Part shown: positions 3,542 through 39,568 of the stretch, piece by piece | Layout: each line of letters starts with the position of its first letter | How positions within the stretch are numbered: the first letter of the stretch is position 1 | Source: a virus | Lineage: Duplodnaviria > Caudoviricetes | Virus record (IMG/VR): IMGVR_UViG_3300020057_000388 | Coordinates: 1-56,001 of that record | Strand: one strand, 5' to 3' | Length of the DNA: 56,001 bases | Program-made: the position numbers and the translations under genes | Notes under the pieces: model-generated | Told to the model about the DNA's origin: nothing | Database searches by the model: none | The model's input: the letters and a program-made list of their open reading frames with translations, nothing else

Positions 3542-4059
3542 ACGTGACGACGGTTGACACCTGCCGGGTTTTGCCTTGCTAGCGCTTTCTGGGCCGTGCT
3601 AACCCCGAGCGATCACGTCTTGGGGGTGCCCGGTGCCTGGTATTTCACGTCATCTCGGTGTGTAGGGGCGCTCGGCCCCGCACGTCTCGTTGTCGATTCA
3701 ACGGTTACGTCCTTGTTTTCGATAGTCAATCGCGTACGATGGTAGGTTTTGAAAAAACCCTTGACTTCTCAGATTCCATGGTAGTAGTGAGTGCTGCGCG
3801 CACAAAGCGCGCACAGTGGCGGGGTGGTGAGGGTAATACGGACGGCGCAGCAAGGGGTTAGCGGAGCAATCGCTCAGGTCAAGCTCTACTTCGACTGCAA
3901 AGAGCAGTAACGCACTCGATCGAGCCTGATCCTAGGTGATCGTTCTGATTCGCGGCACGGGTGACCCGTGCTCACGAATCACCCCTGAATCCAGCACACC
4001 GAGCGCACACGCGCTCAGGCGTCAGGGGGTCGGGGAATGGTTGAGGTCAAGGGGCGCCA

Positions 4060-4491
4060 GTGCGCTCGGTGCGCTCGGTGTGTTTCTTGAGCGACTGCCG
4101 GGGGCGTTCGTTCCGCGAGCGTCAAGCGCTCGTGTGGGCCAAGACAGACTACCACTGCTGGTACTGCGGTGTCAATCTGCGGGAGCTTACTGGTCGGTGG
4201 ACGTCCGATCATCAGGTGCCAGTTTCGCGGGGCGGTTCGGACGAGAGCAGCAACCTCGTCCCGGCGTGCGATCGCTGTAACGTCAGCAAGCGCGACCGAA
4301 CGCCAGACGAGCACCGCAGGGCGATGGTTGATCGCTGGCGCCGCGATCTCTCTCGAATTCTAGGCGAGCTGCGCCGAGTAGCTTCCTGGCTCCCGGATGC
4401 GCCGGTCACCCCTGAGAAATTACAGGAGCTCGCCGATATCGACGCGTACCTTCAGACCGCAAGCGTGACGTTCGCCGGAGAGCGTCAGTGA
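4060..4491 (+). CDS. HNH endonuclease
   Basis: CWYCG...DHQVPVSRGGSDESSNLVPACDRCNVSK. Confidence 0.9.
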   Translation: MRSVRSVCFLSDCRGRSFRERQALVWAKTDYHCWYCGVNLRELTGRWTSDHQVPVSRGGSDESSNLVPACDRCNVSKRDRTPDEHRRAMVDRWRRDLSRILGELRRVASWLPDAPVTPEKLQELADIDAYLQTASVTFAGERQ

Positions 4492-5342
4492 GCGCGGAGC
4501 TGATGGCGCGCGTCATGTACACCGAGTTACCGACGCACCAGAAGCTGTGCCTGGTCGCGCTCGCCGATCACGCCAACGACGACGGTTGCGGCATTTGGGC
4601 CGGTCAGCGCCTGATCGCGCACAAGGTCAGTGCCGGCGATCGAGCTGCCCGAGCGACCCTGAAGCAGCTTCGAGATGACGGCTGGATCATGCGCGAGGCG
4701 CGAGAAGGCGCGCACGGGACGGATCGCTACCGCATCCTCATCGAGCGACTGCCGACTTCGACTGAGTGTCAGGCCATTCGCCAGCGCCTGCGCGACTCCG
4801 CGTCGACCGGACGTGGGCTGCCACCTGGACGTGCACGACCGCCCGGAAGTCTACGGCACGTCGACCGGACGTCCACGTCCGGTGTCGACCGGACGTCCAC
4901 GTCCGGTAAACCATCAGTAGAAACATCAGAAGAACCAAAAGAGATCACCGGCGCCCGTCGGCGCCGTCCTACCAACCCGGAAGCTGACGCCCGAGTCCGC
5001 CCGGTGCTCGATCACTTCTGCCAGGCGCACCAGGTAGCGCTCGGTGAAGCCTACCCCGTCGTGGGTGGACGTGACGGCACAGTGATCAAGCGGCTGCCGC
5101 AGTCCTACGACGTCGCAAAGCTCTGTGCCTTGATCGACAGGTTTTTCGCGTCGCTCGGGGCGGACGACTTCGTGCGCGAGAAGATCGGCGCGACCGTGCC
5201 GGCGTTCGTTGGGAAAATCTCGGCGCTACTCGGTCAGGGCAAGGGGTCGATCGCCGTCAGCGCTTCGCGGCCGACGCAGAGCCGGCTGCCCGACTTCGAG
5301 ATCACTGAGGAAATGATTCAGGGAGGTCGCAAGTATTCCTAG
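4488..5342 (+). CDS. Phage replication initiator (N-terminal winged HTH)
   Basis: KLCLVALADHANDDG HTH_36-like N-terminus, internal repeats, directly upstream of dnaB. Confidence 0.8.
   Translation: MSAELMARVMYTELPTHQKLCLVALADHANDDGCGIWAGQRLIAHKVSAGDRAARATLKQLRDDGWIMREAREGAHGTDRYRILIERLPTSTECQAIRQRLRDSASTGRGLPPGRARPPGSLRHVDRTSTSGVDRTSTSGKPSVETSEEPKEITGARRRRPTNPEADARVRPVLDHFCQAHQVALGEAYPVVGGRDGTVIKRLPQSYDVAKLCALIDRFFASLGADDFVREKIGATVPAFVGKISALLGQGKGSIAVSASRPTQSRLPDFEITEEMIQGGRKYS
4802..4907. repeat. Iteron-like repeats, probable phage origin
   Basis: GTCGACCGGACGTCCACGTCCGGT twice in tandem (4860-4907) plus a partial copy at 4802-4814, inside the initiator gene. Confidence 0.65.
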
Positions 5343-6750
5343 TCCCGACGACACGTTCCTGCGGCGCGTGCCGCCGAGCAGCTCAGACGCGGAGCAGTCG
5401 GTGATCGGCGCCATTCTGATTGAGCCCGTCGCGCTCGATCGGATCATCGGCATCGTCGCGGCGGGCGACTTCTACGCGAAGGCCAACCGCGTGATTTTCG
5501 CCGTCGCGCTCGAAATGTACGACCGCAGGGAACCGATCGACAGCGTCACGCTGACGGCAATTCTGCGATCGCGCGGCCAGCTCGCTGACGTCGGTGGCGC
5601 GTCCTACATCAGCGAGCTGATGAACCACACGCCGAGCGCGGCGAACGTGGCGTCATATGCGCGGATCGTCGCGGACAAGGCGACGCAGCGGCGGCTGATC
5701 GAGGCGTCGATCAAGAATCTACAGGACGCGTACGACCCGCCGGATGGTTCGGTGCGCGAGATGATGACGCGCGCCGAGGATCGCGTCAGCGAAGTGAGCG
5801 ACGACGCCGAGCCCGTCAGCACGGGTGAGATCGGCGACGCGATCACGCAAGCAACGCTGATCATCACGGCCAAGGACGCGCGCCGCATCCCGACCGGCTA
5901 CCCCGTCGTCGACGAGAGTATCGGCGGGTTCAAGCTCGGATCGCAGTGGATCGTCGCCGGTCGTCCGGGCTCGTTCAAGTCGGTGTGTGCGTCCGACATC
6001 ATGTTCGCGGCTGCGTTCAACGGCGTCGGCTCGGTGCTGCTCTCGTTGGAGAACACCGCGGGGCAGGTGCTGCTGCGCCGCGCCGCGAAGGATCTCGGCA
6101 TACCGAACATGAATCTGCAGATGGGGTTCACGCACTCGGGTCGCTCGTTGCTCACGAACGACGAGCGCGCCGCGGCCCTCGCGAAGCTGGAGGAATACCG
6201 CCGGCTGCCGCTCTGGATCTTCGACGATCACCTACCGTGGCCGCAGCAGGTGCGCCGGCTCCGCGCGATGAAGCGGCAAAATCCGAAGATCGGACAAATC
6301 ATCATCGACCACGTCCGGCTGGTGAGCGGCGTTCCGGGCCTGCGTGACGATCAGGAGCGCGAACGCATCGCGGTCGTCAGCGGCTGGGGCATGCGCTTCT
6401 GCAAAGAGGCGAAGGTTAACACGCTGCTCGTCTCGCAGCTCAATCGCGAGAGCGAGAAGCAAAACCGCGAGCCGCTGATGGCGGATCTCGCGCTGTGCGG
6501 GAACCTCGAACAAGACGCGCACGGGATCATGTTCGCGCACTTCGCCGACAAGGAATCAGCCGGCGAGCATGACGAGGAATTTCTGCTGGCGCTCGCGAAG
6601 AACCGCGACGGGCCGAAGGGGCGTTACAAAATGCGCGCGGTGCGGAAGTTCTGCCGCGTCATCGACCCGGTGGAGGAAGCGCGCGCAGAGCGCCACGGCA
6701 ACGACTACGGCAACGGCTACGGCAACGACAACCACGAAGGGATGGCCTGA
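5335..6750 (+). CDS. dnaB: Replicative DNA helicase, DnaB family
   Basis: PPxxxDAEQSVIGAIL N-domain, AGRPGSFKS, SLE, IIIDH, SQLNR, LEQDA, AKNRDGP; start either ATT 5335 or GTG 5368. Confidence 0.93.
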   Translation: MPSPDDTFLRRVPPSSSDAEQSVIGAILIEPVALDRIIGIVAAGDFYAKANRVIFAVALEMYDRREPIDSVTLTAILRSRGQLADVGGASYISELMNHTPSAANVASYARIVADKATQRRLIEASIKNLQDAYDPPDGSVREMMTRAEDRVSEVSDDAEPVSTGEIGDAITQATLIITAKDARRIPTGYPVVDESIGGFKLGSQWIVAGRPGSFKSVCASDIMFAAAFNGVGSVLLSLENTAGQVLLRRAAKDLGIPNMNLQMGFTHSGRSLLTNDERAAALAKLEEYRRLPLWIFDDHLPWPQQVRRLRAMKRQNPKIGQIIIDHVRLVSGVPGLRDDQERERIAVVSGWGMRFCKEAKVNTLLVSQLNRESEKQNREPLMADLALCGNLEQDAHGIMFAHFADKESAGEHDEEFLLALAKNRDGPKGRYKMRAVRKFCRVIDPVEEARAERHGNDYGNGYGNDNHEGMA

Positions 6751-6753
6751 AGG

Positions 6754-7383
6754 ATGCGATACCACAACGCCGACGAGATTTTTCTGGGGGATCGCGCGAC
6801 GCGACAACCCGTCAACCAACGCCGGAACCTCTACCCGGTCGAGTCCGTTCCCCGGCACATGCAGATGGCGTACGCGCTGGTGAAGAACGCGTACGAATCG
6901 CTAGGCAAGTGCACACGCGAACGCCTCGCGGCCATCCGCTGGTTTCTGTACGACCCGCGACCTGAGCGAGAGTTCGGCTCGTTCCTCTGGGCCGCGGCGG
7001 TGATGGAGCTCGACGCCGACCAGTTCCGCCGCCGCATCGTCGACCTGCTGAAGCGCAAACGCATCACGTACACGCGCGACACCTGCACCAAGGCGCACGA
7101 GCTGGAATTTCTGGAGCTGTGGCCGAAAGAGCGGATGAAGTACTGTACGGCCGGCGAGTGCGATGCGCCCCGCGCGTTCCAGTGTGCCCGTTGCACGCGG
7201 CACTGTGATCGGCACGACCATTCGCGAGCGATCGCCCTGGAGAGGATTTTGCCGAAAACGTGTTTCGAGGACGGCTGCGAGACAGCCAGACAGGGGTACT
7301 ACACGCGCTGCCTTGAGCATCAGCGCGAACGGTGGAAAGCGAACGTCGGCCGCTACCGCACGCGCAAGGCTGACGCGGCGTGA
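6754..7383 (+). CDS. Hypothetical Cys-rich protein
   Basis: ORF in operon, C-terminal Cys/His clusters. Confidence 0.6.
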   Translation: MRYHNADEIFLGDRATRQPVNQRRNLYPVESVPRHMQMAYALVKNAYESLGKCTRERLAAIRWFLYDPRPEREFGSFLWAAAVMELDADQFRRRIVDLLKRKRITYTRDTCTKAHELEFLELWPKERMKYCTAGECDAPRAFQCARCTRHCDRHDHSRAIALERILPKTCFEDGCETARQGYYTRCLEHQRERWKANVGRYRTRKADAA

Positions 7384-7994
7384 ATCCGCCAAAGCTCACC
7401 GGGGCCGCGCGTCGCGTGGTCGAGCAGGCGATTCGCGACATCGTGGACGAACGGTACGACGATGCAGCCGAGGCGCTGCGGGCGTTGATCGCGCGGCCGA
7501 AGCGGGGTGTCGCCGTCGAGCCGCGCGAGTTCGGCGTCAAGGTGGTGCCGATCGTGCGCGAGCCGCTGCCGCCGCTGGCACCGATTGAGGTGGACCGCAG
7601 CGCCGAAGTCGTGACGTCGCTGTCGAAGCCTGACGGACGCATCGAAGATCCGGCCGCGATCCTCGCCTATCGCGCGCGGCACCCGGTCTGCGAAGCCGCG
7701 GGGCCGGACTGCTGGTATGCGGTGCACTACCCCGAAGGGCATCCGCGGGCCGGTTGTCCGTTCGTCGAGGTGCATCACGTCGTCAAGAAGTCGAAGGGCG
7801 GTGACGACGTGCCGCAGAATTTCCTCGCGCTCTGCACCGCGCACCACACGGGCCGCGTCGGGTGGCACTCGCTCACCCCGCCGGTGTGGTTCGCACGATT
7901 CAACGATCGGCTGGACGTGGTCGCCTACGCCAAGGCGAATCACTTCCTGCGCACGAAGGGGTGGAACCCCGAGCTGATCGAGGTCGCCGCGTGA
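7380..7994 (+). CDS. HNH endonuclease-domain protein
   Basis: EVHHVVKKSKGGDDVPQNFLALCTAHH. Confidence 0.75.
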   Translation: MNPPKLTGAARRVVEQAIRDIVDERYDDAAEALRALIARPKRGVAVEPREFGVKVVPIVREPLPPLAPIEVDRSAEVVTSLSKPDGRIEDPAAILAYRARHPVCEAAGPDCWYAVHYPEGHPRAGCPFVEVHHVVKKSKGGDDVPQNFLALCTAHHTGRVGWHSLTPPVWFARFNDRLDVVAYAKANHFLRTKGWNPELIEVAA

Positions 7995-8173
7995 AGCCAC
8001 CACGCGAGACGATGGACGCGAGGTGCGCGCAGTGCGGGCGCACGTCTGCGGTCGAAGTCTCGTCGGTGCTGGTCGAGGTGCCGTGCCCGCGGTGCGGCAG
8101 CCAGTATCCGCAGCCGGTGAAAGCAGTAGCACGGGAAAAACTGCTGGCGTCGATGCGCCGACAGCGTGTGTAA
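7991..8173 (+). CDS. Small zinc-ribbon protein
   Basis: CAQC...CPRC; GTGA overlap with upstream gene. Confidence 0.55.
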   Translation: MKPPRETMDARCAQCGRTSAVEVSSVLVEVPCPRCGSQYPQPVKAVAREKLLASMRRQRV

Positions 8174-8657
8174 CGGGAGGGGGTGCAAGGTGGGGCATCA
8201 TAGCGAGCATCGCCCGCAGTATTCGCACTTGGCTGCCGCGCTGACGGCGTACTTCTCGGCGAAGGTTGGCAGCGCGGGGCGCTGCACGCTGGCGGACCCT
8301 GGCCGCATTCGGGGTGACGTCGACCCGAGCGCAAACAGCGACCGCATCGCCGAGATCGCGGTGGCACTCGCGCAGGTCGCCATCGAGGGGCGGGTGGCGC
8401 TGGAGCTGGAGACGTTGCACGCGCACCTGCCGGTGCGGTTCGACCCGGACGCCAAGCCGGCGAAGAACATGAGTCCAGTCACGTACGGCAAGCTCGACGT
8501 GATGACCCGCGAGTTTGGCGGCACTTGGTACGAAAGAAAATACGGGAGCGTGGTGAAGCAGGCGCGCGACGAGGCAGCCTTCCAGCTCGCGCGCCGTGGG
8601 CTGATTCCAGAACCGTCGTGGTTCAACGACGAGAAGCAAGCACGGGGGATGGCGTGA
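8166..8657 (+). CDS. Hypothetical protein
   Basis: Fills the operon with overlaps on both sides. Confidence 0.55.
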   Translation: MCNGRGCKVGHHSEHRPQYSHLAAALTAYFSAKVGSAGRCTLADPGRIRGDVDPSANSDRIAEIAVALAQVAIEGRVALELETLHAHLPVRFDPDAKPAKNMSPVTYGKLDVMTREFGGTWYERKYGSVVKQARDEAAFQLARRGLIPEPSWFNDEKQARGMA

Positions 8658-9265
8658 TGGTGGACGAGATGAACGAGGACGGGCAGGACAACGAGCTGAC
8701 CTATGTGGCAGTCGAGGGTGCGGAGGGGCCGACGGTCGACCGCGCAAGCTACGACGCCTGGAAGCAAAGCGTCATCCAGGTGGGGAAGTACGGCACTGGC
8801 GTGCCGTGGGCGCTGGGTGATCTACTCGTCGAGGGTGAGCGGAAGTTCGGTGAGGACTACGCGGCCGTCATCCCCGACCTGGAAGCCTACAGCTACAAGC
8901 CGGCGACCCTCACGCAGTTTCTGTTCGTCGCGAAGAACGTACCCGGCGGTGAGAACGGGCGCCGCAGAGTCGGCGTCGTCGACTGGTCGCACCACAAGGA
9001 AGTGGCGTCGCTCACGGCCGAACAGCAGGTCGAATGGCTCGAAGCCTGCGAGCGCGACCAGCTCTCGGTCAAGACGCTGCGCGAGAAGCTGAAGGCTGCC
9101 GGCCTGCGGAAGTCGCGCGCCAGCACGCCGCGCACCTGCGAGGGCTGCACGCAGTACGCCGAGCAGGTCGCGGCCATGCAGGCCATCATCAACGACCAGC
9201 AGGACGAGATCGAAGGGGCGCGCGCCGCGGTGCAGATGGAGTCGGCCGAGGCTGCCGGTGCGTAG
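8657..9265 (+). CDS. LmbU-like DNA-binding protein
   Basis: PWALGDLL...WSHHKEVASL...QVEWLEAC...SVKTLRE pattern of LmbU-type regulators. Confidence 0.6.
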   Translation: MVDEMNEDGQDNELTYVAVEGAEGPTVDRASYDAWKQSVIQVGKYGTGVPWALGDLLVEGERKFGEDYAAVIPDLEAYSYKPATLTQFLFVAKNVPGGENGRRRVGVVDWSHHKEVASLTAEQQVEWLEACERDQLSVKTLREKLKAAGLRKSRASTPRTCEGCTQYAEQVAAMQAIINDQQDEIEGARAAVQMESAEAAGA

Positions 9266-9584
9266 AATCCCCCGCGACGCGGTGCTGATGGGCTGGAAGG
9301 AAATTGCCGGGGCGCTCGGCTACTCCGAGGATCGCATGCGCGACATCGCGGCGACCGAGGATCTGCCGGTGTTCCGCATGGGGGTCGATGTCGGCGAGGA
9401 CCGTGGCCCCGGCGCACAGGTCGTGCTCACGGGGGCCGCGCTGCATGAGTGGGCGCGGGCTCGGTCGCTCGGCTACTCGCGCCGATCGTGGCGCCTGGCG
9501 ATCGCTGATCGCATGCGAAATGCGTTCGATCGTGTGTTCACGGGCGGCAATTCCGCACCCGTTCGGATGGCGAAAAGCGCCTGA
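9258..9584 (+). CDS. HTH/excisionase-like DNA-binding protein
   Basis: LMGWKEIAGALGYSEDRMR...LPV motif. Confidence 0.6.
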   Translation: MRRIPRDAVLMGWKEIAGALGYSEDRMRDIAATEDLPVFRMGVDVGEDRGPGAQVVLTGAALHEWARARSLGYSRRSWRLAIADRMRNAFDRVFTGGNSAPVRMAKSA

Positions 9585-9642
9585 CGAATGATCGGCCCGC
9601 GATTGCCCCGCGTATGGCCGGAGTCGGGCCAGGGATGACACC

Positions 9643-9672
9643 TTGACTTGACACGACGGGTACCCGTATAAG
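9643..9672 (+). promoter_or_regulatory. Sigma70-like promoter with palindromic operator
   Basis: TTGACT-N18-TATAAG; perfect palindrome ACGGGTACCCGT at 9656-9667. Confidence 0.55.
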
Positions 9673-9686
9673 CCACCATCGCAATT

Positions 9687-10140
9687 GTTCCCGAGGGGAA
9701 CGAACGGTAAACGCGAGCAGGAGTGCGCCATGCACTGCAACTAGATCGCAAACCATCTGAGATGAACCCGCGGGGCGCCAGGCTGCGAAGCCGGCGCCCC
9801 GCTTGCGTTTCCGACGTCACAAGATGAAGCGACCAAAGGTCAAACGACCGACCCCGACTTCGGTTGAGGTGTCGATCGAGCCAGCCGAACCGGCCAAGCC
9901 GGTGAACGGCGGCAACAGGTCGCTTCTGTCCAGAAATGGGCATGGCAGTAAATCGAAGGGCAATATTCAAGAGCCGCACTAGCGGCCATCGAGCAGGCGG
10001 GACGACCCCGCCGACTACGAAGCGGCCTCGGGCTGCACCCCTTCCGGGGTGCGGTACCGGGGCCGTCGTACTTTTGGCCGGTTGCGCTTCGCGCGCGCGG
10101 CAACGGCGTCGTCACTGGCGCCGCATCTTCAAGTGCGCCC
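9687..10140 (+). ncRNA. Candidate large structured RNA (unclassified)
   Basis: Nested long-range helices and GNRA/cUUCGg-capped hairpins between the promoter and the SD of the GT2 gene. Confidence 0.55.
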
Positions 10141-10151
10141 GAGGAGCCTTC

Positions 10152-10769
10152 GTGGACCTGCTGCCTACCCTAACGATCGTCACGCCGGTGACGCGCGTCG
10201 CGAACCTGCCCGAAATCGGGCGGTCGATCGCGACTGCGCTGCGCAATGCCGGCGAGGACATGCCGATAGTGTGGTGGCGGTCGCTCGCATCGTTCCTCAT
10301 CGTCGATGATGTCACGCAGACTGATCGCGCCTTGCCGTTCCTCTGCCGCATGACGCGCTGCCATGTAACGGGCCGCGTCGGCTCGGCAGAGCGTAGCGAC
10401 GTGCTCGACCGCCTTGCCGGCGGATACGTCTGCTTCCTCGACGACGACACCACGATGCACCCCGAGTATCTGGCGACCGTCGCGCACTACATGCGCACGA
10501 AGCCAGGGCACGCCATCGTTGTCGATCAAGTCGACGCCGCGGGGAACCTGCGGTGCATCGCTGCGCCGGATCGTGTGCAGCCCTGCATGATCGACACGGG
10601 ACAGTGCTGCGTGCCGTTCGACTTGATCGGCGAGCTGCGGTGGAACCGCGATCGCTACGAATGCGACGGGGAGTTTTACCAAGCGGTGTACCAACGCCAT
10701 CCGGCGCGGTTCGTGTTCGTCAATCGCACGCTCTCGATCTACAACGGCATTCCGGCGTGCGACTCGTAG
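10152..10769 (+). CDS. Glycosyltransferase family 2 (GT-A)
   Basis: LTIVTP N-terminus, VCFLDDD motif, CDGEF; GAGGAG SD before GTG at 10152. Confidence 0.8.
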   Translation: MDLLPTLTIVTPVTRVANLPEIGRSIATALRNAGEDMPIVWWRSLASFLIVDDVTQTDRALPFLCRMTRCHVTGRVGSAERSDVLDRLAGGYVCFLDDDTTMHPEYLATVAHYMRTKPGHAIVVDQVDAAGNLRCIAAPDRVQPCMIDTGQCCVPFDLIGELRWNRDRYECDGEFYQAVYQRHPARFVFVNRTLSIYNGIPACDS

Positions 10770-11563
10770 CCGGTGGTCCGGGCCTTGGCGATGCCATGGT
10801 CCTTTCCGCGGTGGCGCACGAGATCCGCCGCCAGCGTCCATCGGAACCGATCACCCTCGCTGTCGCCTACCCTGAGCTGTACGTCGGCAATCTCGACGTG
10901 ATGACTGAGCCATGGTCGCCGAGCTCGCCGCGCACGTTCGCGGCGCTCGACGACATGAACACCACGGGCGGTGAGCATCAGGTCACGTTCATGTGTCGGC
11001 AGCTCGGGCTTGAGCCGCCGACGACGATTCAGCAACGCGCATATTTCATGGTGGGTGAGGGTGGCGAATCGCCCCCCTTCCCGCGGTACGTGACGGTCCA
11101 GTCGAGCGCAGGGCCGTGGGCAGGAAACACGAAGCGATGGCCGGCGCAGGACTGGCGCGAGCTGGTCGCCCGCCTCGCGAGCGATGGGCGCGTCAAGGTG
11201 GTGCAGGTCGGGTCGACTGACGACCCGGACGTCGGCGCCGACATCGACGCGCGCGGCTGGCCGGTTCGGCTCAGCATGCGCCTGCTGGCCGATGCGCGCT
11301 GTCACGTCGGACCGATCTCTGGGCCGATGCACCTCGCGAACGCCGTGCGGACGCGATCGGTGATCGTAGCCGGGGGCCGCGAGCAGCGCGAGGTAGTCGG
11401 ATACGTCGGTGACGTGTGGGTCGAGAAACGCGTGGCCTGCTCGCCGTGCTGGCTGACCAGCTGTCCCGTCGAGAACGGCAACAAGATCGCCCCGTGCTTC
11501 TCGGCGATCTCGGTTTTTGAGGTCTTGGAAGCGGTCAACATGGTCCTGGAAGGGGCAGCGTGA
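10757..11563 (+). CDS. Glycosyltransferase family 9 (heptosyltransferase-like)
   Basis: GLGDAM, KRWP, GPISGPMHLANAV, CSPC motifs. Confidence 0.85.
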   Translation: MRLVAGGPGLGDAMVLSAVAHEIRRQRPSEPITLAVAYPELYVGNLDVMTEPWSPSSPRTFAALDDMNTTGGEHQVTFMCRQLGLEPPTTIQQRAYFMVGEGGESPPFPRYVTVQSSAGPWAGNTKRWPAQDWRELVARLASDGRVKVVQVGSTDDPDVGADIDARGWPVRLSMRLLADARCHVGPISGPMHLANAVRTRSVIVAGGREQREVVGYVGDVWVEKRVACSPCWLTSCPVENGNKIAPCFSAISVFEVLEAVNMVLEGAA

Positions 11564-12255
11564 GCGAGACGGTTCAGTCAACCGAGATCATCGACGGCGT
11601 GTCGCTCGTCGTGCATGACAGCGCGGGCGCTGGCTCGACGCTCGGCGTCGTCAAGGAGCTGCGCGAAGATTGCTACGGCGTCCGCGAGCTGAACCTGCAG
11701 CCCGGTGACGTCGTCGTCGACATCGGCGCGCACACTGGCGCGTTCGCCTGCTTCCTCGCGCTCCGCTACGGCGTGCGTGCCTATAGCTACGAGCCCGCCG
11801 CCGACAATTTCCGCCACCTGCAGCTGACCATCGCGGCCAACGGTGTCGCCGATCTCGTCGAGCCGCATCATGCTGGCGTGAGCAGTGACGGCCGCGCGGT
11901 CCGGGTCGTAACGCCGAGCTATAACACCGGCGGCGGAAGTAGTTTCTACGTCGGCGACCCGAGCGGACACCTCGTCAGCGAAGCACCATCAACCACGCTA
12001 GACGCCATCTTCGAGCGGTACGCGATCGAGCGCTGTGCGCTGCTCAAGGTCGATTGCGAGGGGATGGAATTCGAGGTGCTGCGGACGTTCGCCGCATGGG
12101 CGAGCGTCGCCAACCTCGGCATGGAAGTGCACGACTTCGGCGACATTCCTGACCGAGACGTGCCGGGCCCGCTGAAGCTGTGTGCGTCACGTGTCAGCGG
12201 TCAGGTGCGCACGGTCGTGATCGCGTCACCGCATAACGGTTTCGAGTGGACGTGA
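11560..12255 (+). CDS. FkbM-family methyltransferase
   Basis: VVDIGAHTG, YEP, LLKVDCEGMEFEVL. Confidence 0.9.
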   Translation: MSETVQSTEIIDGVSLVVHDSAGAGSTLGVVKELREDCYGVRELNLQPGDVVVDIGAHTGAFACFLALRYGVRAYSYEPAADNFRHLQLTIAANGVADLVEPHHAGVSSDGRAVRVVTPSYNTGGGSSFYVGDPSGHLVSEAPSTTLDAIFERYAIERCALLKVDCEGMEFEVLRTFAAWASVANLGMEVHDFGDIPDRDVPGPLKLCASRVSGQVRTVVIASPHNGFEWT

Positions 12256-12265
12256 GGGGGTCGGG

Positions 12266-12883
12266 ATGCTGAAGCGGTTCGGACTCATTACGGCGGTCGA
12301 TGCAACCGCGATCGCGCACTCGTTGCTCGCGGTTGCGAAACAGTTCGCGGGTACGACGCTGAACCTCTGCGAAATCGGTATTTGCCACGGCGAAACCTCG
12401 CGCGGCATGGCCGAGTTCCTGACCGACCGCGGCATCGCATTTGACTACGTCGGCGTCGACAACGGCCGCGATGGTGCAGGCGGTGCTGTGTGCGCTGACG
12501 TGCCGCCGTTCGCTGGCGCGCGCGTGGTGCAGGGCGAGTCGAGTCACGTCTACATCGAAGTTTCCAACGGGCTGCATTTCCTGTTCGTCGACGGCGGACA
12601 CGACATCAATCACGTGATGCTCGATGCGTTGCACTACGGCGACAAGGTTCTGCCGGGCGGACGCATGATCCTGCATGACGCGTCGCCGCTGGCACAGAAC
12701 AAATGCGACTGGCAGGGCACGGGTCCGAAGCACCACCCCGATTTCGGCACGGCCACGCTCGAAGCCATTCGCAAACTCGGAATGCTGCCGATGCTGCGGC
12801 CCGACTGGCGCATCGTGGAACATACGTACGACCCGGCCCTCGACTACGGCGGTGTCATCGTGTTCGAGCGCGTGGCGATCTAA
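12266..12883 (+). CDS. Class I SAM methyltransferase (Methyltransf_24-like)
   Basis: EIGICHGET, LFVDGGH, PGGRMILHD. Confidence 0.85.
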   Translation: MLKRFGLITAVDATAIAHSLLAVAKQFAGTTLNLCEIGICHGETSRGMAEFLTDRGIAFDYVGVDNGRDGAGGAVCADVPPFAGARVVQGESSHVYIEVSNGLHFLFVDGGHDINHVMLDALHYGDKVLPGGRMILHDASPLAQNKCDWQGTGPKHHPDFGTATLEAIRKLGMLPMLRPDWRIVEHTYDPALDYGGVIVFERVAI

Positions 12884-12886
12884 GCC

Positions 12887-13693
12887 GTGCGCCTATTTCT
12901 GCGCGGTTCGCTCGGCGACGAGGTCGCCATGACGGCCACGGTGCGCGCGCTGCGGGCCTTCCGCCCGAGCGAGCGTGTGACGGTGGACGTCCGACGGCCC
13001 GAGCTGTTCGAGAGCAATCCTCACCTCGAAGGCGGATGGGAAGATGACGGCACCGTCGTTGTTCTGCCGCTCGGTGGGTACGCCGGCCAGCACATGGCCG
13101 ACTCGTACGCCCACGCCTGCGGCATCGACCACGCCTCGCCAATGTACGAGCAGCTGCAGTGCCGTGAGCCTCAGATATTCCTGACCACCGCCGAGCGCGC
13201 GACAGCCAAGGCGCTCGACAATCCTCACGGCGCGGTTGCCGTCGACGCATGGGCCGGATGGCCGAGCCGGCGCTGGCCGCGCGCTTCGTGGGAACGGCTC
13301 GTCGCTGCGTTGTCGGATGAGCTCGTGCCAGTCATCGAAGTCGGCGCGACGGTGCCTGACTGCAACGGTGGTCGCCGCAATAGCCCGCTGCCGCAAACGG
13401 ACGCGAGCTACCTCGACCAGCTGACGATCCGCGAAACCGCGGCCGTGCTCGAACGCTGCGCGCTGTACGTCGGCAACGACTCGGGCCTGATGCACGTCGC
13501 TGCTGCAGTTGACTGCCCGCAAGTCATCGTGTTCGGCGCCATGCCGTCGGCCGTCCGAGCGTACGCCAGCACGACGGCCGCGAATCCGGGCGACCCGTGT
13601 GGCTGCGCTGAGCACTGCATGGCGCAGCCGCAGTGCCCGCTGCGCGTCACGGTCAAGTCGGTTCTCGGAACCGTCCTGCAGCGGCTCTCGTAG
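12887..13693 (+). CDS. Glycosyltransferase family 9 (heptosyltransferase-like)
   Basis: SLGD, NPHL, RRWP, YVGNDSGLMHVAAAV. Confidence 0.9.
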   Translation: MRLFLRGSLGDEVAMTATVRALRAFRPSERVTVDVRRPELFESNPHLEGGWEDDGTVVVLPLGGYAGQHMADSYAHACGIDHASPMYEQLQCREPQIFLTTAERATAKALDNPHGAVAVDAWAGWPSRRWPRASWERLVAALSDELVPVIEVGATVPDCNGGRRNSPLPQTDASYLDQLTIRETAAVLERCALYVGNDSGLMHVAAAVDCPQVIVFGAMPSAVRAYASTTAANPGDPCGCAEHCMAQPQCPLRVTVKSVLGTVLQRLS

Positions 13694-13720
13694 TTCACTT
13701 CCACAAGATCGGAACCAGTC

Positions 13721-13945
13721 ATGTCCGTTATCACTCGCGACGGTGGCATCGAAGCAACCGAAGCGCACCTCATTCTCGAATCTGCGATGGCGCGACTCAC
13801 GTTCGACGAGCGCCGCGTGGTCGCGCTTCGCATGGAAAACGCATCGTTCTTCGAGATCGCGCAGGAGCTGAACGTGCGCCCGGATTCGGCACGCGCGCTG
13901 TACGAGACGGCGCGCACAAAGCTGGCGTCGATCATCGGCGAGTAA
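13721..13945 (+). CDS. Sigma-70 region 4-like HTH protein
   Basis: LTFDERRVVALR...SFFEIAQELNV...ARTKL. Confidence 0.7.
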   Translation: MSVITRDGGIEATEAHLILESAMARLTFDERRVVALRMENASFFEIAQELNVRPDSARALYETARTKLASIIGE

Positions 13946-13955
13946 GGGGGGTTCT

Positions 13956-14150
13956 ATGTTTGGGAAGCTGCGGAGGTGGTTCGGGGGAACCCCGACGGGT
14001 GAAGCTGCCCGTCGCGAGCTGGTGATCGACGCCCGTATTCGGGACAACCGCGCCCATGGCGTGCGGCGGAAGGCGTCGCGGAATGCGTTCCGCAAGGCCA
14101 AGCGCCAAGCGCAGCGACGCGCACGACGCGTCACGCGGCACGCGCGATGA
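13956..14150 (+). CDS. Small basic hypothetical protein
   Basis: G-rich SD, operon packing. Confidence 0.45.
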   Translation: MFGKLRRWFGGTPTGEAARRELVIDARIRDNRAHGVRRKASRNAFRKAKRQAQRRARRVTRHAR

Positions 14151-14332
14151 TCGAGCTGCGGCTGCAGGACGAGAACGGCAATGGCATCGCGCTGACCGAG
14201 GCAGACAAGGGCGGTGCGCAGCTGACCGTATTCGGCGGCAGCGACAGCGTCATCGTGCGCCTCACGCGCCGGCAAGTCGATGCGCTCGCGCAGGGCGCTG
14301 AGTCAATCGCGGACGGCTCACTGCTCGACTGA
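14147..14332 (+). CDS. Hypothetical protein
   Basis: ATGA overlap with upstream gene. Confidence 0.5.
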   Translation: MIELRLQDENGNGIALTEADKGGAQLTVFGGSDSVIVRLTRRQVDALAQGAESIADGSLLD

Positions 14333-14368
14333 GCAGTGACATCACAAAACAAAATCGAGGGGGCTGGT

Positions 14369-15094
14369 ATGGCAAAGCGGGCAGCGGGGAGCGAGGTTGT
14401 GGTGGTCGAGGCTGACATGGTGGACCCGGACGACATCGCCCCTGGTCTCGAGGACGTGGACCTGACCAAGATTCGCACGGTGTCGGGTCTGCGCGAGATC
14501 GGCACCGAGCTGCAGGCTGACGTCCGCGGCTTGCTCGACGAAGTCGACGACCTGACGGACACCGTCGAGTCGCGCGAGGCAACGCTGGCTGCGTACAAGA
14601 GCGTGGCCTGTGACTGGCAGACGACGGCCGAGCAGGCGCAGAGCAACGCCGAGCGTGCGAACCTGACGTCGGTGCAAGCGCTCTCGCTCCGCGACGAAGC
14701 GATGCGCGAGCTACGCGGTGCGCGCTCGCTGTTTATGTCGATCTTGCGCGCCAAGTCCGAGGTGGGTCCCCGGCTGCTTGCGGATCTTCGCGTCGCCAGG
14801 GCGAACGAAGCGGCCTGCGCGGCCTACGCGAAAACGGCCGAATCTGTCAACCACGGCCTTGCGGCCCGCGTGCTGGAGATGGAAGCGGAAGTCGGTGCGA
14901 AGGCCGACGAATTGGCCGAGTGCCAGCATAAGGTCAACGCCGCGCTCGAATCGCGTGACGTCGCTCGCGCGCTACGCGACGACTTGCGCCAGGACGTCGC
15001 GAACCTGAAGTATCGTCTGGTGCCGCTCGTAGCCATCATCGGCGCAGCCATCGGCGGTTCGATCGCGGGCACCATCGCGTCGCTGCTGCGGTAG
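14369..15094 (+). CDS. Coiled-coil protein with C-terminal transmembrane helix
   Basis: Ala/Leu/Glu heptads, hydrophobic C-terminus, GAGGGG SD. Confidence 0.7.
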   Translation: MAKRAAGSEVVVVEADMVDPDDIAPGLEDVDLTKIRTVSGLREIGTELQADVRGLLDEVDDLTDTVESREATLAAYKSVACDWQTTAEQAQSNAERANLTSVQALSLRDEAMRELRGARSLFMSILRAKSEVGPRLLADLRVARANEAACAAYAKTAESVNHGLAARVLEMEAEVGAKADELAECQHKVNAALESRDVARALRDDLRQDVANLKYRLVPLVAIIGAAIGGSIAGTIASLLR

Positions 15095-15098: not shown

Positions 15099-17849
15099 TT
15101 GACGCCCGACCTGATCACGCGCATCAAGGCGCTGCTGGACGACCCCAAGAGCAAACACGCCAAAGCCTTCGCCGAATTTCTGGCCGGTTTGCAGCACAAC
15201 CTCAACCCCGCCGTCAGCCGTGACGACGCGATCGAGATGCTCGCGCAGCACCTCATCACCGGGCCGGTGTTCAACGCGCTGTTCGGCAACTACCAGTTCA
15301 CGCAACACAACCCCGTCTCGCAGGCCATGGGGAAGATGCTGCAATTGCTCGACGAGCAAGCCATCGGGAAGGAAGCCGAAACCCTCGACAAGTTCTACGA
15401 AGCCGTAAAAAGAAAAGTCGAAGGCGTCGACGACGCCGAAGGCCGCCAGACCGTCATCAAAACGCTCTACGATGAGTTCTTCAACAAGGCCTTTCCCCGC
15501 ATGGCCGAGCGGCTGGGCATCGTCTACACGCCCGTCGAAGTCGTCGACTTCATCATCCACAGCGTTCAGGACGTTTTACGCGACGAGTTCAACAGCGGAC
15601 TGGGCGAAAAAGACGTCCACATTATCGACCCCTTCACCGGCACCGGCACGTTCCTCGTCCGTCTGCTCCAGTCCGGCCTCATCCCGCCCGACAAGCTGCT
15701 GCACAAATACAAACACGAGATGCACGCCAACGAAATCGTCCTGCTCGCCTACTACATCGCCGCCATCAACATCGAAGAAACCTTCCACGGCCTGCGAAGC
15801 CAAGGCGCGAGCCTGGCCGAAGGCAAGGGCAAGGACGACTACATCCCCTTCGACGGCATCTGCCTGACCGACACGTTCCAACTCTACGAATCCGGCCAAC
15901 AACAATTCGAAGGCACCTTCCCCGAAAACTCCGCCCGCGTGAAACGCCAGAAAGCCAGCCCGATTCGCGTGGTCATCGCGAACCCGCCGTACTCCGCGCT
16001 ACAGAACAGTGAGAACGACGGAAACAAGAACCTCAAATACGAATCGTTGGACGACCGCATCCGTGCGACGTACGCGGAAAGGTCAAATGCGACGTTGCTG
16101 AACAGTGTCTACGACAGCTATGTCCGCGCCATTCGCTGGGCCAGCGATCGGATCAAGGACCGCGGCGTAATTGGATTTGTCACCAACGGCTCGTACATCG
16201 ACGGTAACGCATTCGATGGCTTGCGTGCTTGCCTGAAAGACGAATTTACATCGATTCTGGTCTTTAACTTGCGCGGAAACCAGCGGACGTCAGGTGAGCT
16301 ATCAAGGCAAGAAGGCGGAAAAATCTTCGGCTCCGGTAGTCGCGCGCCTATCGCCATCACGTTGTTTGTAAAGAACCCCGCTAAGAAGGACGGTTGCACA
16401 GTCCGGTACCACGACATCGGCGACTACCTCAGCCGCGAAAAAAAGCTCGCGCTCGTTAAGAGTTTCGCGAGCGTTTCGGGAATCGAAAACGCAGGGAAGT
16501 GGAGAGAGATTGAGCCCAATAGCGACAATGACTGGATCAACCAGAGAGACGAAGCCTTTTCGACTTTCGATGAATTGGGCCAGACCGACGCGATTTCAAA
16601 GGTTGTATTCTTTGAAGACTACTCAAGCGGCGTAATCACCAACCGCGACGCATGGTGCTACAACTTCTCGCAGAAAGTATTGCGGTCGAACATGTCCGAC
16701 ATGATCGACTTCTTCAATTCTGAAGTGAAACGATTCAAAAACTCCAACGTTCCCACTACCCCGAAGGAGCGGTTAGAGGCCGTTGACGATTTCATTGAGA
16801 TCGACCTCAAGAAGATCAGTTGGACGCGAGAGGTAAAACAGGATTTGGCGAGAGGAAAAGCGGGCAAATTCCATTCGGACGCTGTTCGCCAGTCGATGTA
16901 TCGTCCGTATTCAAAGCAGTGGATGTACTTCGACCGCCAATTCAATAACTGCGTCTACCAAATTCCGAAGATCTACCCGACTGCGAACTCCAAAAACCTC
17001 TCAATCATGGTGTCCGGCATCGGCGCTTCGAAAGAATTCTCCGCGTTGATAACCAATTGCACGCCCAACCGGCATTTGCACGATACAGGACAGTGTTACC
17101 CGCTCTATCTCTATGAACCCGCCGAAGATTCCGGCAATCTCAACCTCGGTAAAAGCGAAGGTGAGGTCATCGACGGCTATCGCCGTCGGGACGCGATCAC
17201 GGATGCGATCCTGAAGACGTTCCGGGCCGCGTACGGGAAGGACGTGGGCAAGCAGGACATCTTCTATTACGTCTACGGCGTGCTGCATTCCCCCGAGTAC
17301 CGCACCCGCTTCGCGGCGGACTTGAAGAAGATGCTGCCGCGCATCCCGCTGACGAAAGAAACCAAGGATTTCAAAACCTTCTCCGACTCCGGCCGGAAGC
17401 TGGCGGAATGGCACTTGAACTATGAGACGGTGCCGACCTGGCCGGTGGAGGAGATTCACGACAAGCTCGATCTGGGGTTGCCCGAGACCTATAAGGTCGA
17501 CAAGATGCGATTCGAACGCCCGAGCGCCGAGCAGAAGGCCGCGGGGGCGAAGTGGGACAAGACCCGCATCATCTATAACAGCCACCTGACGATCTCGAAG
17601 ATTCCGCTGGAGGCGTACGACTACATCGTGAACGGCAAGCCTGCGATCGAATGGATTATCGAACGCTATCAATTCACGCGGGACAAGGACAGCGGGATTG
17701 TGAATGACCCGAACGACTGGTGTAAGGAACACAACCAGCCGAGGTATATTGTGGATTTGATCGGGCGGGTGGTGCGGGTGAGTGTGGAGACGATGAAGAT
17801 CGTGAACCGATTGCCGATGTTGAATGAGAGAAAAGAGCGGGCGGGTTAA
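15099..17849 (+). CDS. Type ISP restriction-modification enzyme, N-terminally truncated (N6-adenine MTase + TRD only)
   Basis: RLGIVYTPVEVVDFI, DPFTGTGTF, NPPY, NLRGNQRTSGE, YVYGVLHSPEYR, VNGKPAIEWI; nuclease and SF2 helicase domains missing. Confidence 0.9.
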   Translation: MTPDLITRIKALLDDPKSKHAKAFAEFLAGLQHNLNPAVSRDDAIEMLAQHLITGPVFNALFGNYQFTQHNPVSQAMGKMLQLLDEQAIGKEAETLDKFYEAVKRKVEGVDDAEGRQTVIKTLYDEFFNKAFPRMAERLGIVYTPVEVVDFIIHSVQDVLRDEFNSGLGEKDVHIIDPFTGTGTFLVRLLQSGLIPPDKLLHKYKHEMHANEIVLLAYYIAAINIEETFHGLRSQGASLAEGKGKDDYIPFDGICLTDTFQLYESGQQQFEGTFPENSARVKRQKASPIRVVIANPPYSALQNSENDGNKNLKYESLDDRIRATYAERSNATLLNSVYDSYVRAIRWASDRIKDRGVIGFVTNGSYIDGNAFDGLRACLKDEFTSILVFNLRGNQRTSGELSRQEGGKIFGSGSRAPIAITLFVKNPAKKDGCTVRYHDIGDYLSREKKLALVKSFASVSGIENAGKWREIEPNSDNDWINQRDEAFSTFDELGQTDAISKVVFFEDYSSGVITNRDAWCYNFSQKVLRSNMSDMIDFFNSEVKRFKNSNVPTTPKERLEAVDDFIEIDLKKISWTREVKQDLARGKAGKFHSDAVRQSMYRPYSKQWMYFDRQFNNCVYQIPKIYPTANSKNLSIMVSGIGASKEFSALITNCTPNRHLHDTGQCYPLYLYEPAEDSGNLNLGKSEGEVIDGYRRRDAITDAILKTFRAAYGKDVGKQDIFYYVYGVLHSPEYRTRFAADLKKMLPRIPLTKETKDFKTFSDSGRKLAEWHLNYETVPTWPVEEIHDKLDLGLPETYKVDKMRFERPSAEQKAAGAKWDKTRIIYNSHLTISKIPLEAYDYIVNGKPAIEWIIERYQFTRDKDSGIVNDPNDWCKEHNQPRYIVDLIGRVVRVSVETMKIVNRLPMLNERKERAG

Positions 17850-19462: not shown

Positions 19463-19990
19463 ATGCCGACAATCGAAAAACTATACGCCGGCATGCTAGA
19501 CGCCACTGCAAATGGCAAGAGCCACGGTATTGGGCGGGAAGACTGCGAATTCGCAGAGTATGCCCTTACGCAGGTGGATCGACTTCGTGCCGGCCTCCTT
19601 TCTCTCGGGGGGAGAGAAAAAGACGTTCAGGGTGTTTTACGAAAGCTGCGCCAGGGGGCGGCTTCGTATCGGCGTCGAGCGCGTCATGCGAAGGCGAGGA
19701 ACGCCTCCGTACAAAAGTACGGCGTTAGCTTTCGCCAACGGGTCGCCGAGCGCGATGGACTGAAGTGTAAAGTCTGCGGGTTCGACGTGACCGTTCACGC
19801 ACATCACATCGTTCCGATATCGGAAGATGGACCGGATGAATCAGAGAACGGCATCATGCTCTGCCCTCATTGCCATTCATTGGCGCACGCCGGAAGGCTC
19901 ACGGCCCAAAGTCTCTATGCCTTGATCAGCGTCACATCAGCCCATGGCGCTAGTTCTGTCATCGGGAATGAAGCTAGTTGTGGCGTCTGA
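19463..19990 (+). CDS. HNH endonuclease
   Basis: RDGLKCKVCG...HAHHIVP...NGIMLCPHCH. Confidence 0.85.
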   Translation: MPTIEKLYAGMLDATANGKSHGIGREDCEFAEYALTQVDRLRAGLLSLGGREKDVQGVLRKLRQGAASYRRRARHAKARNASVQKYGVSFRQRVAERDGLKCKVCGFDVTVHAHHIVPISEDGPDESENGIMLCPHCHSLAHAGRLTAQSLYALISVTSAHGASSVIGNEASCGV

Positions 19991-20768
19991 CACTGGGGGT
20001 CAGGTCCGCGAGTCCGTTGGTGGTCGACCTGAAGTGGCACTCGACCTAACCCAGCTCTACAAGTTGGCGCTTCGCGCATCGACGGTCGCTGACGTGGCGC
20101 AATGGTTCTGCGTCTCCGAGCGAACGGTCTACCGACGACTGCTGGAGGAGCCCTACGCTTCTATCTGGGCGCGAGGGCAGGCAGAGGCGAAGGTCAGCGT
20201 GCGCGCGGCCCTCTTTGGGATGAAGGATACCAACGCGACCGCGGCGATCTTCCTCGCGAAGAATCTCTGCGGGATGACGGATAAGGTCGCCCACGAGCAC
20301 GCCGGCCCCGGTGGCGGGCCGATCGCAATGGTGACGACGTACGCCGACCTAGCTCGCGAAGCCGAGGCGCTGATTCGCAAGGGGGTGCGAATCGAAGGCT
20401 ACGACTACATTGACGGGGAGCTAGTGCCGAATGACGAGGGCGAGGACACCCGAGGATCAGAAGATCATCAACCACCTGACCAACAAGCAACGCCCGGAAT
20501 GGTGGGTCGAGACGCACCTATCGGGGAAGCTCTGGCCGAAGCAGGTAGAGATCCTGCGCTCGATCAAGAAGAATCGACGCACGGCGGTGCGCTCGTGCCA
20601 TGGCGCGGGCAAGACGCACTTGGCAGCGAGAGCGGCCCTGCAGTTCGGGTGCTGTCACCCGTACAGCATCGTGATCACGACAGCGCCGACGGGGCGCCAG
20701 GTGCGGAAGCTGCTGTGGCAGGAGCTGCGGAAGGCGCACTCGACAGCGCTTCGGCCGTTGGGTGGTAA
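19968..20768 (+). CDS. terS: Terminase small subunit
   Basis: HTH-like N-terminus, AAIFLAKNLCG, EHAGPGGGPI; directly upstream of terL; start uncertain. Confidence 0.75.
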   Translation: MKLVVASDTGGQVRESVGGRPEVALDLTQLYKLALRASTVADVAQWFCVSERTVYRRLLEEPYASIWARGQAEAKVSVRAALFGMKDTNATAAIFLAKNLCGMTDKVAHEHAGPGGGPIAMVTTYADLAREAEALIRKGVRIEGYDYIDGELVPNDEGEDTRGSEDHQPPDQQATPGMVGRDAPIGEALAEAGRDPALDQEESTHGGALVPWRGQDALGSESGPAVRVLSPVQHRDHDSADGAPGAEAAVAGAAEGALDSASAVGW

Positions 20769-29609: not shown

Positions 29610-30173
29610 ATGAAACTATCTCACTGGGCGAAACAGAACGGAATTGCGTACATCACCGCTTGGCGATGGTTCAAAACAGGCAAGCTGCCGGTTGTGGCGT
29701 ACAGAGCGCCAAGCGGTGCAATATTAGTTGAACCGAAGTCGCAAAGGAAAGAGTCTCTGTCAGCGTCGGTGTATTGCCGAGTGTCTTCGCATGACAAGAA
29801 GGCTGATTTGGATCGACAGGTTGAGCGGTGTTTAGAGTTTTGCAGGGGCAGAGGGTTTGTTGTTGACAAGGTTGTGAAGGAAATCGCTTCTGGAATGAAC
29901 GACCGGCGAAAGAAGCTAACCGCCCTACTTCGCTCCAATCCAGATCGGATAGTCGTGGAACACAAGGACCGCCTGACTCGATTTGGATTCGCGTATTTTG
30001 AAGAACTTCTGCCGAAGTGTGGTTGCGAACTCATCGTCATCAACAGAGACTCAGAAGCAAAAGATGATTTAGTAAAGGATTTAATTGCGGTTGTAACCAG
30101 CTTCTGTTGCCGATTGTATGGGATGCGTCGCGGCAGCAAGAAGGCCGCTGTCATTGCGAAGGAACTCGAATGA
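29610..30173 (+). CDS. tnpA: IS607 transposase (serine recombinase)
   Basis: MKLSHWAK HTH, YCRVSS, EIASG, VEHKDRLTRFGF. Confidence 0.95.
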   Translation: MKLSHWAKQNGIAYITAWRWFKTGKLPVVAYRAPSGAILVEPKSQRKESLSASVYCRVSSHDKKADLDRQVERCLEFCRGRGFVVDKVVKEIASGMNDRRKKLTALLRSNPDRIVVEHKDRLTRFGFAYFEELLPKCGCELIVINRDSEAKDDLVKDLIAVVTSFCCRLYGMRRGSKKAAVIAKELE

Positions 30174-39496: not shown

Positions 39497-39542
39497 CCGC
39501 ACCTCCTGGTGGCTCACGCCGTCAGGAGGTGCGGCTGTTTTC
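39497..39542 (+). terminator. Intrinsic terminator after capsid gene
   Basis: CCGCACCTCCTG...CAGGAGGTGCGG followed by TGTTTT. Confidence 0.65.
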
Positions 39543-39568
39543 GTGTTTCTGCGGTGTGGAGGGGTGGA

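Follow-up and report, generated by a model that had tools for sequence, protein, structure and literature searches.

The stretch of DNA analyzed here is the linear IMG/VR virus record IMGVR_UViG_3300020057_000388 (56,001 bases; CheckV completeness estimate 61%; G+C content about 65%), which was present in DNA runs of microbial-mat metagenomes and which, at its full length, is called the window below. Our interest was in an interval of about 460 nt on its plus strand (9687-10140), immediately ahead of a cluster of glycosyltransferase and methyltransferase genes that begins with a gene resembling family 2 glycosyltransferases (GT2). An original prediction had described this interval as a new large multi-domain phage non-coding RNA (ncRNA). 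Our analysis points instead to a folded 5' untranslated region (UTR), a small protein gene overlooked in the middle of the interval, and a structured spacer, behind a promoter-like sequence. The features of the interval are as follows:

9643-9672, plus strand: putative sigma-70-like promoter (TTGACT 9643-9648, 18-nt spacer, TATAAG 9667-9672)
9679-9823, plus strand: predicted structured 5' UTR, 145 nt, called Domain 1 in the original prediction; hairpin 9685-9703 followed by a multibranch domain whose closing helix is 9709-9718/9801-9810
9770-9802, plus strand: terminator-like hairpin T1; stem of 14 bp interrupted by one bulge, GCGA loop; tail 9803-9810
9824-9982, plus strand: very probable small protein gene, 52 codons from ATG 9824 (59 from TTG 9803), recognized by a homologue, codon comparison and synteny
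9983-10151, plus strand: structured spacer between the small gene and GT2, 169 nt; minimum free energy (MFE) -100.7, z -4.93, 0 of 200 shuffles as good
10022-10066, tail to 10076, plus strand: long-stem terminator-like hairpin T2; stem of 20 bp including 4 G-U pairs, UUCC loop
10141-10154, plus strand: putative GT2 ribosome-binding site, GAGGAG 10141-10146, five nt before the GTG start at 10152

The interval had been thought to hold no convincing open reading frame (ORF), an assumption that was overturned by a protein-level homologue of ORF 9824-9982. A phmmer search of 1.84 billion representatives with the product of this ORF retrieved a protein of 71 amino acids, P0003 (E 7.3e-5), together with the repetitive protein P0002 (817 amino acids, E 9.3e-6, 0 matched stretches), which was treated as a low-complexity artefact. 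P0003 was located on a 72-kb IMG/VR contig, L169, and its BLASTP alignment with the small protein contained 21 identical residues out of 38 (55%), without gaps, around a common LLSRNGH core. Within this 38-codon block, 56 of 114 bases differ between the window and L169 (16, 12, and 28 at the first, second, and third codon position, respectively), and the codon differs for 13 of the 21 conserved residues; in the LLSRNGH core all seven codons differ, including a serine that switches codon family. When the 56 differences were placed at random, the mean number of identical residues was 8.65 and the maximum 16, so that none of 20,000 trials reached 21, and the other two frames of the block shared only 9 and 6 of 37 residues. 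Since the similarity is found at the protein level despite the divergence of the bases, it is the protein, and not the RNA, that has been conserved. As judged from this comparison of two sequences, ORF 9824-9982 very probably codes for a protein under purifying selection. In line with this, strain variants from 4 metagenome runs include no single-nucleotide polymorphism (SNP) within 9824-9982. A conserved protein encoded in the interval, which the original prediction had named as grounds for its own rejection, is thus very probably present. In a frame plot, codon periodicity collapses over 9585-10150, compared with a G+C content at third codon positions (GC3) of 0.8-0.96 in the flanking genes; inside this stretch the frame of ORF 9803/9824-9982 gives a weak GC3 signal (0.69-0.76), and a clear coding signal is seen from about 10150 onward.

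The surroundings of the gene are also shared. L169 is a distant relative (identities of 35% for TerL, 35% for the portal protein, and 33% for TerS), and a gene of the helix-turn-helix (HTH) type, an intergenic hairpin, and the small gene follow one another in it, all upstream of terminase, as they do in the window. The L169 stretch between the gene for an 81-amino-acid protein and the small gene holds a GC hairpin of 12-13 bp, and about 6.4 kb separate the small gene from terminase further downstream. The 81-amino-acid protein and the 108-amino-acid protein encoded immediately upstream of our interval are 22% identical (pairwise E 3e-4) and have the pattern G-x-KEI ... P-x-F ... EW-x-R in common; the former also matches weakly (E 0.08) PHROG 66, excisionase/transcriptional regulator. 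L169 further carries three paralogous HNH endonuclease genes (10217-10765, 12251-12976, and 14137-14868) between the small gene and terminase and two more HNH genes nearby (7786-8739 and 16224-16823), to which the window has weak matches at 41255-41704 (minus strand) and 49691-50272 (plus strand).

The product of the small gene (52 amino acids, net charge about +6) has 5 Lys/Arg among its first 8 residues, is rich in Pro, Gly, Lys, and Ser, and is probably disordered; the ESM Atlas model of P0003, with a predicted local distance difference test score (pLDDT) of 0.44, is compatible with disorder. No match was found in Pfam, PHROG, or NCBIfam, antiterminators included, even at E values up to 1-10, nothing relevant appeared among PDB sequences (best E 1.4), and the ESM Atlas gave no name. 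A profile search for further relatives returned P0003 alone. A scan of viral contigs led again to L169 and, in addition, to the AT-rich contig L171, which was rejected as a relative, the match being antisense to an ORF of 138 amino acids. The protein was present in none of 401 + 401 genomes sampled from the phyla of two arbitrary metagenome-assembled genomes, an empty answer that is uninformative.

The folding on which the original prediction had been built was for the most part reproduced. For the plus strand of 9680-10145 the MFE was -238.3 kcal/mol, compared with -191.9 +/- 6.2 for 100 dinucleotide shuffles, none of which was as good (z -7.52), and each third of the segment also lay beyond its shuffled control. 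The minus strand gave a z score of -3.57, and the excess of the plus strand over it indicates RNA rather than DNA. Because shuffles flatter native GC-rich sequence, a ranking against the record itself was added: among 239 half-overlapping plus-strand windows of 466 nt, with MFE regressed on G+C, the interval ranked first (GC-adjusted z -3.45), and the next two either overlapped the interval or corresponded to another intergenic region. With windows of 200 nt, 9901-10100 was first of 559 on the plus strand, while the same windows on the minus strand ranked 35-296. The 5' UTR (MFE -66.7, z -4.98) and the coding RNA 9824-9982 (z -3.99) were each matched by none of 200 shuffles, and the coding value was beyond the range of 84 other 200-nt windows (mean -0.28, standard deviation 1.13, minimum -2.98). 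Three hairpins capped by GNRA or UNCG loops (GCGA, UUCG, and GAAA), with stems of at least 4 bp, occur in the region; of the 239 windows, 201 had no such hairpin, 32 had one, and 5 had two, and the single window with three overlaps the interval.

Individual elements likewise reappeared in the MFE fold. These are the 10-bp closure of Domain 1 (9709-9718/9801-9810, pair probability 0.94), the hairpins 9722-9736 (0.98) and 9772-9800 with its GCGA loop (1.0), the 9-bp closure of Domain 2 (9826-9834/9918-9926, 0.98) with the cUUCGg hairpin 9855-9866 and the nested stem 9880-9913, the GAAA-loop hairpin (here 9927-9942), the hairpin 9973-9986, and the hairpin 10032-10055, which extends to the 20-bp hairpin 10022-10066. 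By contrast, an outer closure proposed between 9821-9826 and 10124-10129 is complementary in sequence, yet its pair probability was 0.0, and for the long-range closing helices the probability was just 0.47-0.82. The GT2 Shine-Dalgarno (SD) motif, GAGGAG, occupies 10141-10146, and with GTG at 10152 as the start of GT2 the untranslated run ends at 10151. The small gene spans Domain 2 together with the hairpins 9927-9942 and 9973-9986. The 5' strand of helix 9826-9834/9918-9926 begins at the last base of the start codon of this gene and takes in codons 2-4, and the unpaired probability of 9826-9832 was 0.00.

No known RNA accounts for the interval. None of 4227 Rfam models reached its gathering threshold anywhere in the window; locally there were only 4 matches (E 1-3.1) of 12.5-19 bits, compared with gathering scores of 34-80. 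ARAGORN found 0 tRNA or tmRNA genes in the window, consistent with the absence of tRNA and tmRNA hallmarks noted earlier. Nucleotide homologues were not found: 9585-10155 had no match in phage records, in 13 loci (E <= 10), or in 166 loci (E <= 1), and a query of 4001-12000 against phage records gave three short DnaB matches only. Relatives of GT2 were remote (22-56% identity over short segments), and the leader was present in none of their loci (12 on viral contigs, 43 on genome contigs, and 61 on metagenome contigs). A DnaB-based search for related loci yielded no pattern match, and in 49 TerL loci (24-46% identity) the HTH gene, the small ORF, and the glycosyltransferase genes were absent from all; the other shared protein among them was DnaB, in L127 only. 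The own-record search gave one 40-nt match of 80% identity at 55327-55366 and no second copy of any leader hairpin. Readings at the DNA level (replication origin, attP, cos) were also rejected, as there are no iterons or direct-repeat arrays, the plus strand folds much better, and terminase is 10 kb away.

These data bear on the proposal that the interval is a single trans-acting RNA of about 460 nt, large and multi-domain, and either non-coding or dual-function. Its exceptional predicted stability, multibranch domains, and stable tetraloops, and the lack of a competing known family, are in keeping with such an RNA. As a single large ncRNA, however, it fails because the middle third, 9824-9982, encodes a conserved protein and is under purifying selection. 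Moreover, its outer closure has a pair probability of 0, a homologous RNA was found in no collection searched, the fold is not retained in its sole relative, L169, and strains carry indels and pair-breaking substitutions in the untranslated parts. We consider this proposal highly improbable.

Upstream of the small gene, the promoter-like sequence at 9643-9672 was confirmed and is the sole match to TTGAC-N16-20-TATAA in the 56-kb window, where 0.04 would be expected; it was not listed by a consensus scan because the rule of that scan requires T at the last -10 position. From its location we infer a transcription start near 9679. The 5' UTR shows no codon periodicity, and its pair probabilities are 0.94-1.0. 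T1 corresponds to an inverted repeat (I8) with perfect arms of 10 nt; its tail (9803-9810) contains 5 U in 8 nt and is paired with 9709-9718 in the MFE fold (0.94). A mini-ORF behind AGGAG at 9719-9745 was discarded as dispensable, one strain variant lacking its SD motif and start.

Downstream of the small gene, T2 has a pair probability of 0.98-0.99 and is followed by a run of 4 consecutive U (10072-10075), its tail containing 5 U in 8 nt; the tails of both T1 and T2 begin within 2 nt of the stem. A terminator scan listed the inner part of T2 (10051-10066) with its tail and left T1 unlisted. The spacer holds two further hairpins beyond T2. The GT2 SD motif is mostly paired, with several alternative partners (unpaired probability of GAGG 0.16-0.28), and in the local fold it pairs with 10087-10090. 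No alternative fold lacking T1 or T2 emerged, and the pairing 10026-10033/10137-10144 had a probability of 0.0.

Taken together, we propose that the interval is the 5' part of a highly structured phage mRNA with an overlooked small gene, the structure acting in cis, and we assign to this reading a probability of roughly 60%. In this model, transcription would start near 9679 from the promoter at 9643-9672 and would produce, in order, the 145-nt folded 5' UTR, the small gene, the 169-nt spacer, and GT2. T1 (9770-9802) and/or T2 (10022-10066) may terminate or attenuate transcription, in which case the glycosyltransferase/methyltransferase genes and the packaging and later genes would need read-through. 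The helix at the start codon of the small gene may restrict its translation, so that little of the protein is made, and translation of GT2 may be dampened by the helices that cover its ribosome site. For a cis-regulatory role of the folds as such, whether in attenuation or in control of translation, we see the chances as even.

Several observations weigh against this proposal. The family of the small protein rests on two sequences with one homologue only, neither ATG 9824 nor TTG 9803 is preceded by a purine-rich SD motif, and the GC3 of the small gene is 0.68 compared with 0.79-0.88 in neighbouring genes. The protein recurs in L169 without the leader sequence or the fold: the L169 coding sequence has a z score of -0.16 (84 of 200 shuffles as good), its upstream intergenic region -2.10, and the two together -1.60. 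Terminator-like sites are not commoner in the window than in shuffles, and canonical terminators seem to be little used in it. Portal-protein matches point to no particular host (35 records, all below 60% identity and with mixed hosts), and promoter and terminator rules may not hold. None of 12 sequencing runs containing the record is listed as an RNA run. Variation between strains, taken from DNA contigs of 4 mat-metagenome runs, some of depth below 5, adds to these points. At 9716/9717, in Domain 1, one run has a 16-nt deletion, which takes away the start of the AGGAG-ATG mini-ORF, and two runs have insertions of 29-30 nt. The untranslated parts have four SNPs, namely 10009 C>A, 10073 T>C, 10146 G>A, and, shared by the four runs, 10137 G>A; each of them hits a predicted pair and gives a mismatch, with 0 compensatory changes. 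Three of the four fall in the low-probability long-range helices, and the strongest hairpins are invariant, but overall diversity is low (12 SNP sites in 2,601 bases).

Two details of this variation deserve mention on their own. Positions 9716-9733 of the 5' UTR form an indel hotspot that may reflect gain and loss of a unit of about 30 nt, and at 10137, just upstream of the GT2 ribosome site, the G of the record is the minority allele, A being present in all four runs.

The same data can be accommodated if the small gene is the sole functional element and the hairpins serve as plain terminators or insulators, or simply arise from GC-rich intergenic sequence, with neither a switch nor a higher-order fold. 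The fold that is not kept in L169, the pair-breaking SNPs, the tolerated indels, the modest probabilities of the long-range helices, and the moderate excess over the record's own sequence all agree with this explanation. On the other hand, it does not account well for a coding sequence more stable than the minimum of the 84 other windows, for the only window of 239 with three GNRA/UNCG hairpins, for the bias toward the plus strand, or for the pairing of both the start codon and the SD motif. We therefore regard it as rather unlikely and retain the structured mRNA acting in cis as the best explanation.

The original prediction had also mentioned an antitermination leader, and the position behind a strong promoter-like site, together with two terminator-like hairpins, fits this idea; it stays an inference, because no antiterminator, RNA data, or covariation supports it. 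A specific version of it would be a module like that of lambda N, in which the small, basic, disordered protein would bind a leader hairpin, so that the polymerase reads through T1, T2, and later terminators, and in which the structured leader would also throttle translation of the small protein, in the layout of lambda pL-nutL-N-tL1. The order of parts is suitable (promoter, leader with GNRA-capped hairpins, small basic gene, long-stem terminator-like hairpin), as are the low confidence of the P0003 model and the location at the early/late boundary, and a passage of PMC5725501 on the structured RNA between nutL and N describes a comparable leader. Nevertheless, no antiterminator or other family was matched in Pfam, PHROGs, or NCBIfam, the leader hairpins have no second copy in 56 kb (the 40-nt match of 80% identity being all that the own-record search gave), and L169 has neither the sequence nor the structure of the leader and no terminator after the small gene. 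Accordingly, this module appears decidedly unlikely to us, and it would be just as much of a long shot to claim a previously unseen N-like protein-plus-RNA switch for processive antitermination that gates glycosylation, methylation, and late genes in a lineage of microbial-mat phages.

The interval lies at the boundary between the early/replication genes and all later genes of the window, which are arranged as follows:

left part of the window, minus strand: recombination block (Sak4-like, HNH)
plus strand: replication block, with HNH at 4060, a replication-initiator-like gene at 4488, DnaB at 5368, and several unknowns
9258-9584, plus strand: orphan gene of 108 amino acids, the immediate upstream neighbour of the interval
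10152 to about 15094: glycosyltransferase/methyltransferase cluster (GT2-like, GT9, FkbM, Methyltransf_24, GT9)
15099-17849: Type ISP-like methyltransferase
19944-21825: terminase small and large subunits
further on: DNA methyltransferases, transposase, portal, capsid, two more glycosyltransferases, tape measure

The 108-amino-acid protein (GC3 of its gene 0.84-0.89 in the frame plot) looks like an HTH protein with a wing, as judged from an AlphaFold2 model of poor quality (pLDDT 49.5) with the element order H-H-E-E-H-H. A homologue search returned its own cluster plus one chance-level locus, a profile search the two known clusters and one 72-amino-acid protein at 71% identity, and no name was obtained from Pfam, PHROGs, NCBIfam, PDB sequences, or the ESM Atlas. 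GT2 itself (10152-10769, plus strand), the first gene of the cluster, matches Pfam Glycos_transf_2 weakly (E 0.0011, under the cut-off). In total, the window has at least five glycosyltransferase-like genes and two S-adenosylmethionine-dependent methyltransferase genes (10152-15094, 39509-40570, and 48906-49949), two of them embedded among capsid and tail genes. By analogy, this number of glycosyltransferase genes suggests glycosylation of virions, an idea that comes from work on mycobacteriophages.

Other regions of the window also drew attention. The 916-amino-acid product of 15099-17849 combines the coupler, N6-methylase, and C-terminal specificity domains of Type ISP enzymes (E 1.6e-115), the nuclease/helicase part being absent from the ORF, and coincides with a dip in G+C (0.51-0.60); it resembles the methylase-specificity half of such an enzyme, captured by the phage and perhaps serving in self-protection. 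A transposase gene (30107-31243; PHROG 506, E 3e-23), in a patch of low G+C (0.53) between the DNA methyltransferases and the portal gene, seems to mark an insertion sequence in the phage genome. In the ranking of non-overlapping 466-nt plus-strand windows by stability, 3729-4194 came second (z -2.37). It separates the divergent gene blocks to its left and right, includes a TTGACT (3762-3767), and has two nested inverted repeats (3993-4014/4054-4075 and 3995-4008/4069-4082) lying across the HNH start at 4060; it could be an early-operon leader or an operator region. Finally, 52193-52700 is structured on both strands (minus strand 52301-52500, z -3.93, first of 559; plus strand z -2.76) and holds an inverted repeat (52305-52318/52368-52381) just upstream of the tape-measure gene, the usual location of frameshift signals of tail chaperones.

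The analysis corrects an attractive false lead. Here strong folding, multibranch domains, and GNRA/UUCG loops were no proof of an ncRNA, since one third of the stretch is occupied by a small gene, very probably translated, that gene-poor, high-GC sequence conceals well. It also brings to light an orphan family of small proteins at the early/late boundary of two distant uncultured phages, in each of which the gene stands beside an HTH-like gene. In one of the two lineages the gene is embedded in RNA whose predicted structure is the most stable in the genome, and a glycosyltransferase/methyltransferase cluster follows immediately. Should this structure gate the cluster, it would illustrate how phages can time accessory genes of this sort; should the small protein act on RNA, it would represent a new type of antiterminator.

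Known systems resemble the interval to differing extents. The corresponding region of lambda has the layout pL-nutL-N-tL1. Similar to it, the interval combines a promoter, a long structured leader, a small gene for a basic disordered protein, and a terminator, with structure between the regulatory RNA site and the ribosome site of the gene. Unlike lambda, it shows no homology to N, no recognizable nut-type site, and no second copy of a hairpin, and it lies at the early/late boundary whereas the lambda region is immediate-early; antitermination is hypothetical here. In lambda, according to a passage of PMC5725501, nutL is located about 200 bp upstream of N, N together with Nus factors represses translation of N, and the RNA in between is highly structured. 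The interval can equally be set beside the late leader of lambdoid phages. There, with Q, the order is PR'-qut-6S RNA-tR'. Common to both are a strong, constitutive-looking promoter before the late genes, terminator hairpins that leave a short RNA unless they are read through, and a small DNA-binding-like gene immediately upstream; the differences are that the 108-amino-acid protein has no match to the Q family, that the leader of the interval contains a gene, and that glycosyltransferase and methyltransferase genes come first downstream. Large structured ncRNAs and cis-antiterminator RNAs are represented in Rfam by GOLLD, ROOL, and EAR, for example, and the interval is like them in size class and phage context but unlike them in that no Rfam family reached its gathering score in the window.

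The closest published analogue in size and position is the zipper-type attenuator cATT of the conjugation operon of plasmid pLS20 (PMC13401043): a leader of 456 nt with a long-stem hairpin and a possible intrinsic terminator. Both leaders measure about 450 nt, stand at the head of a long operon carried by a mobile element, and hold a long-stem hairpin, and in both an upstream sequence can pair with the terminator region, which in our case is predicted for 9709-9718 and the tail of T1. In contrast, the pLS20 leader is non-coding and belongs to a plasmid of low-GC Gram-positive bacteria, whereas the interval has an internal gene and no sequence similarity to it, and the T1 stem stays intact when 9709-9718 pairs with the tail (probability 0.94). 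Stems of intrinsic terminators typically have 7-11 bp, those above 14 bp being extraordinarily long, and the long-stem terminators of pLS20 (TerR) resist antitermination, as stated in a passage of PMC10325885. With stems of 20 bp and 14 bp, respectively, we place T2 and T1 in the long-stem class of that account, although T2, in contrast to TerR, has a short U tract (4 consecutive U) and is a putative terminator. If the resistance of long stems reported in that passage holds here, T2 would by analogy be an insulator rather than a regulated terminator. The interval is therefore best read as joining two known kinds of element, a structured phage leader or attenuator and an orphan small phage protein.

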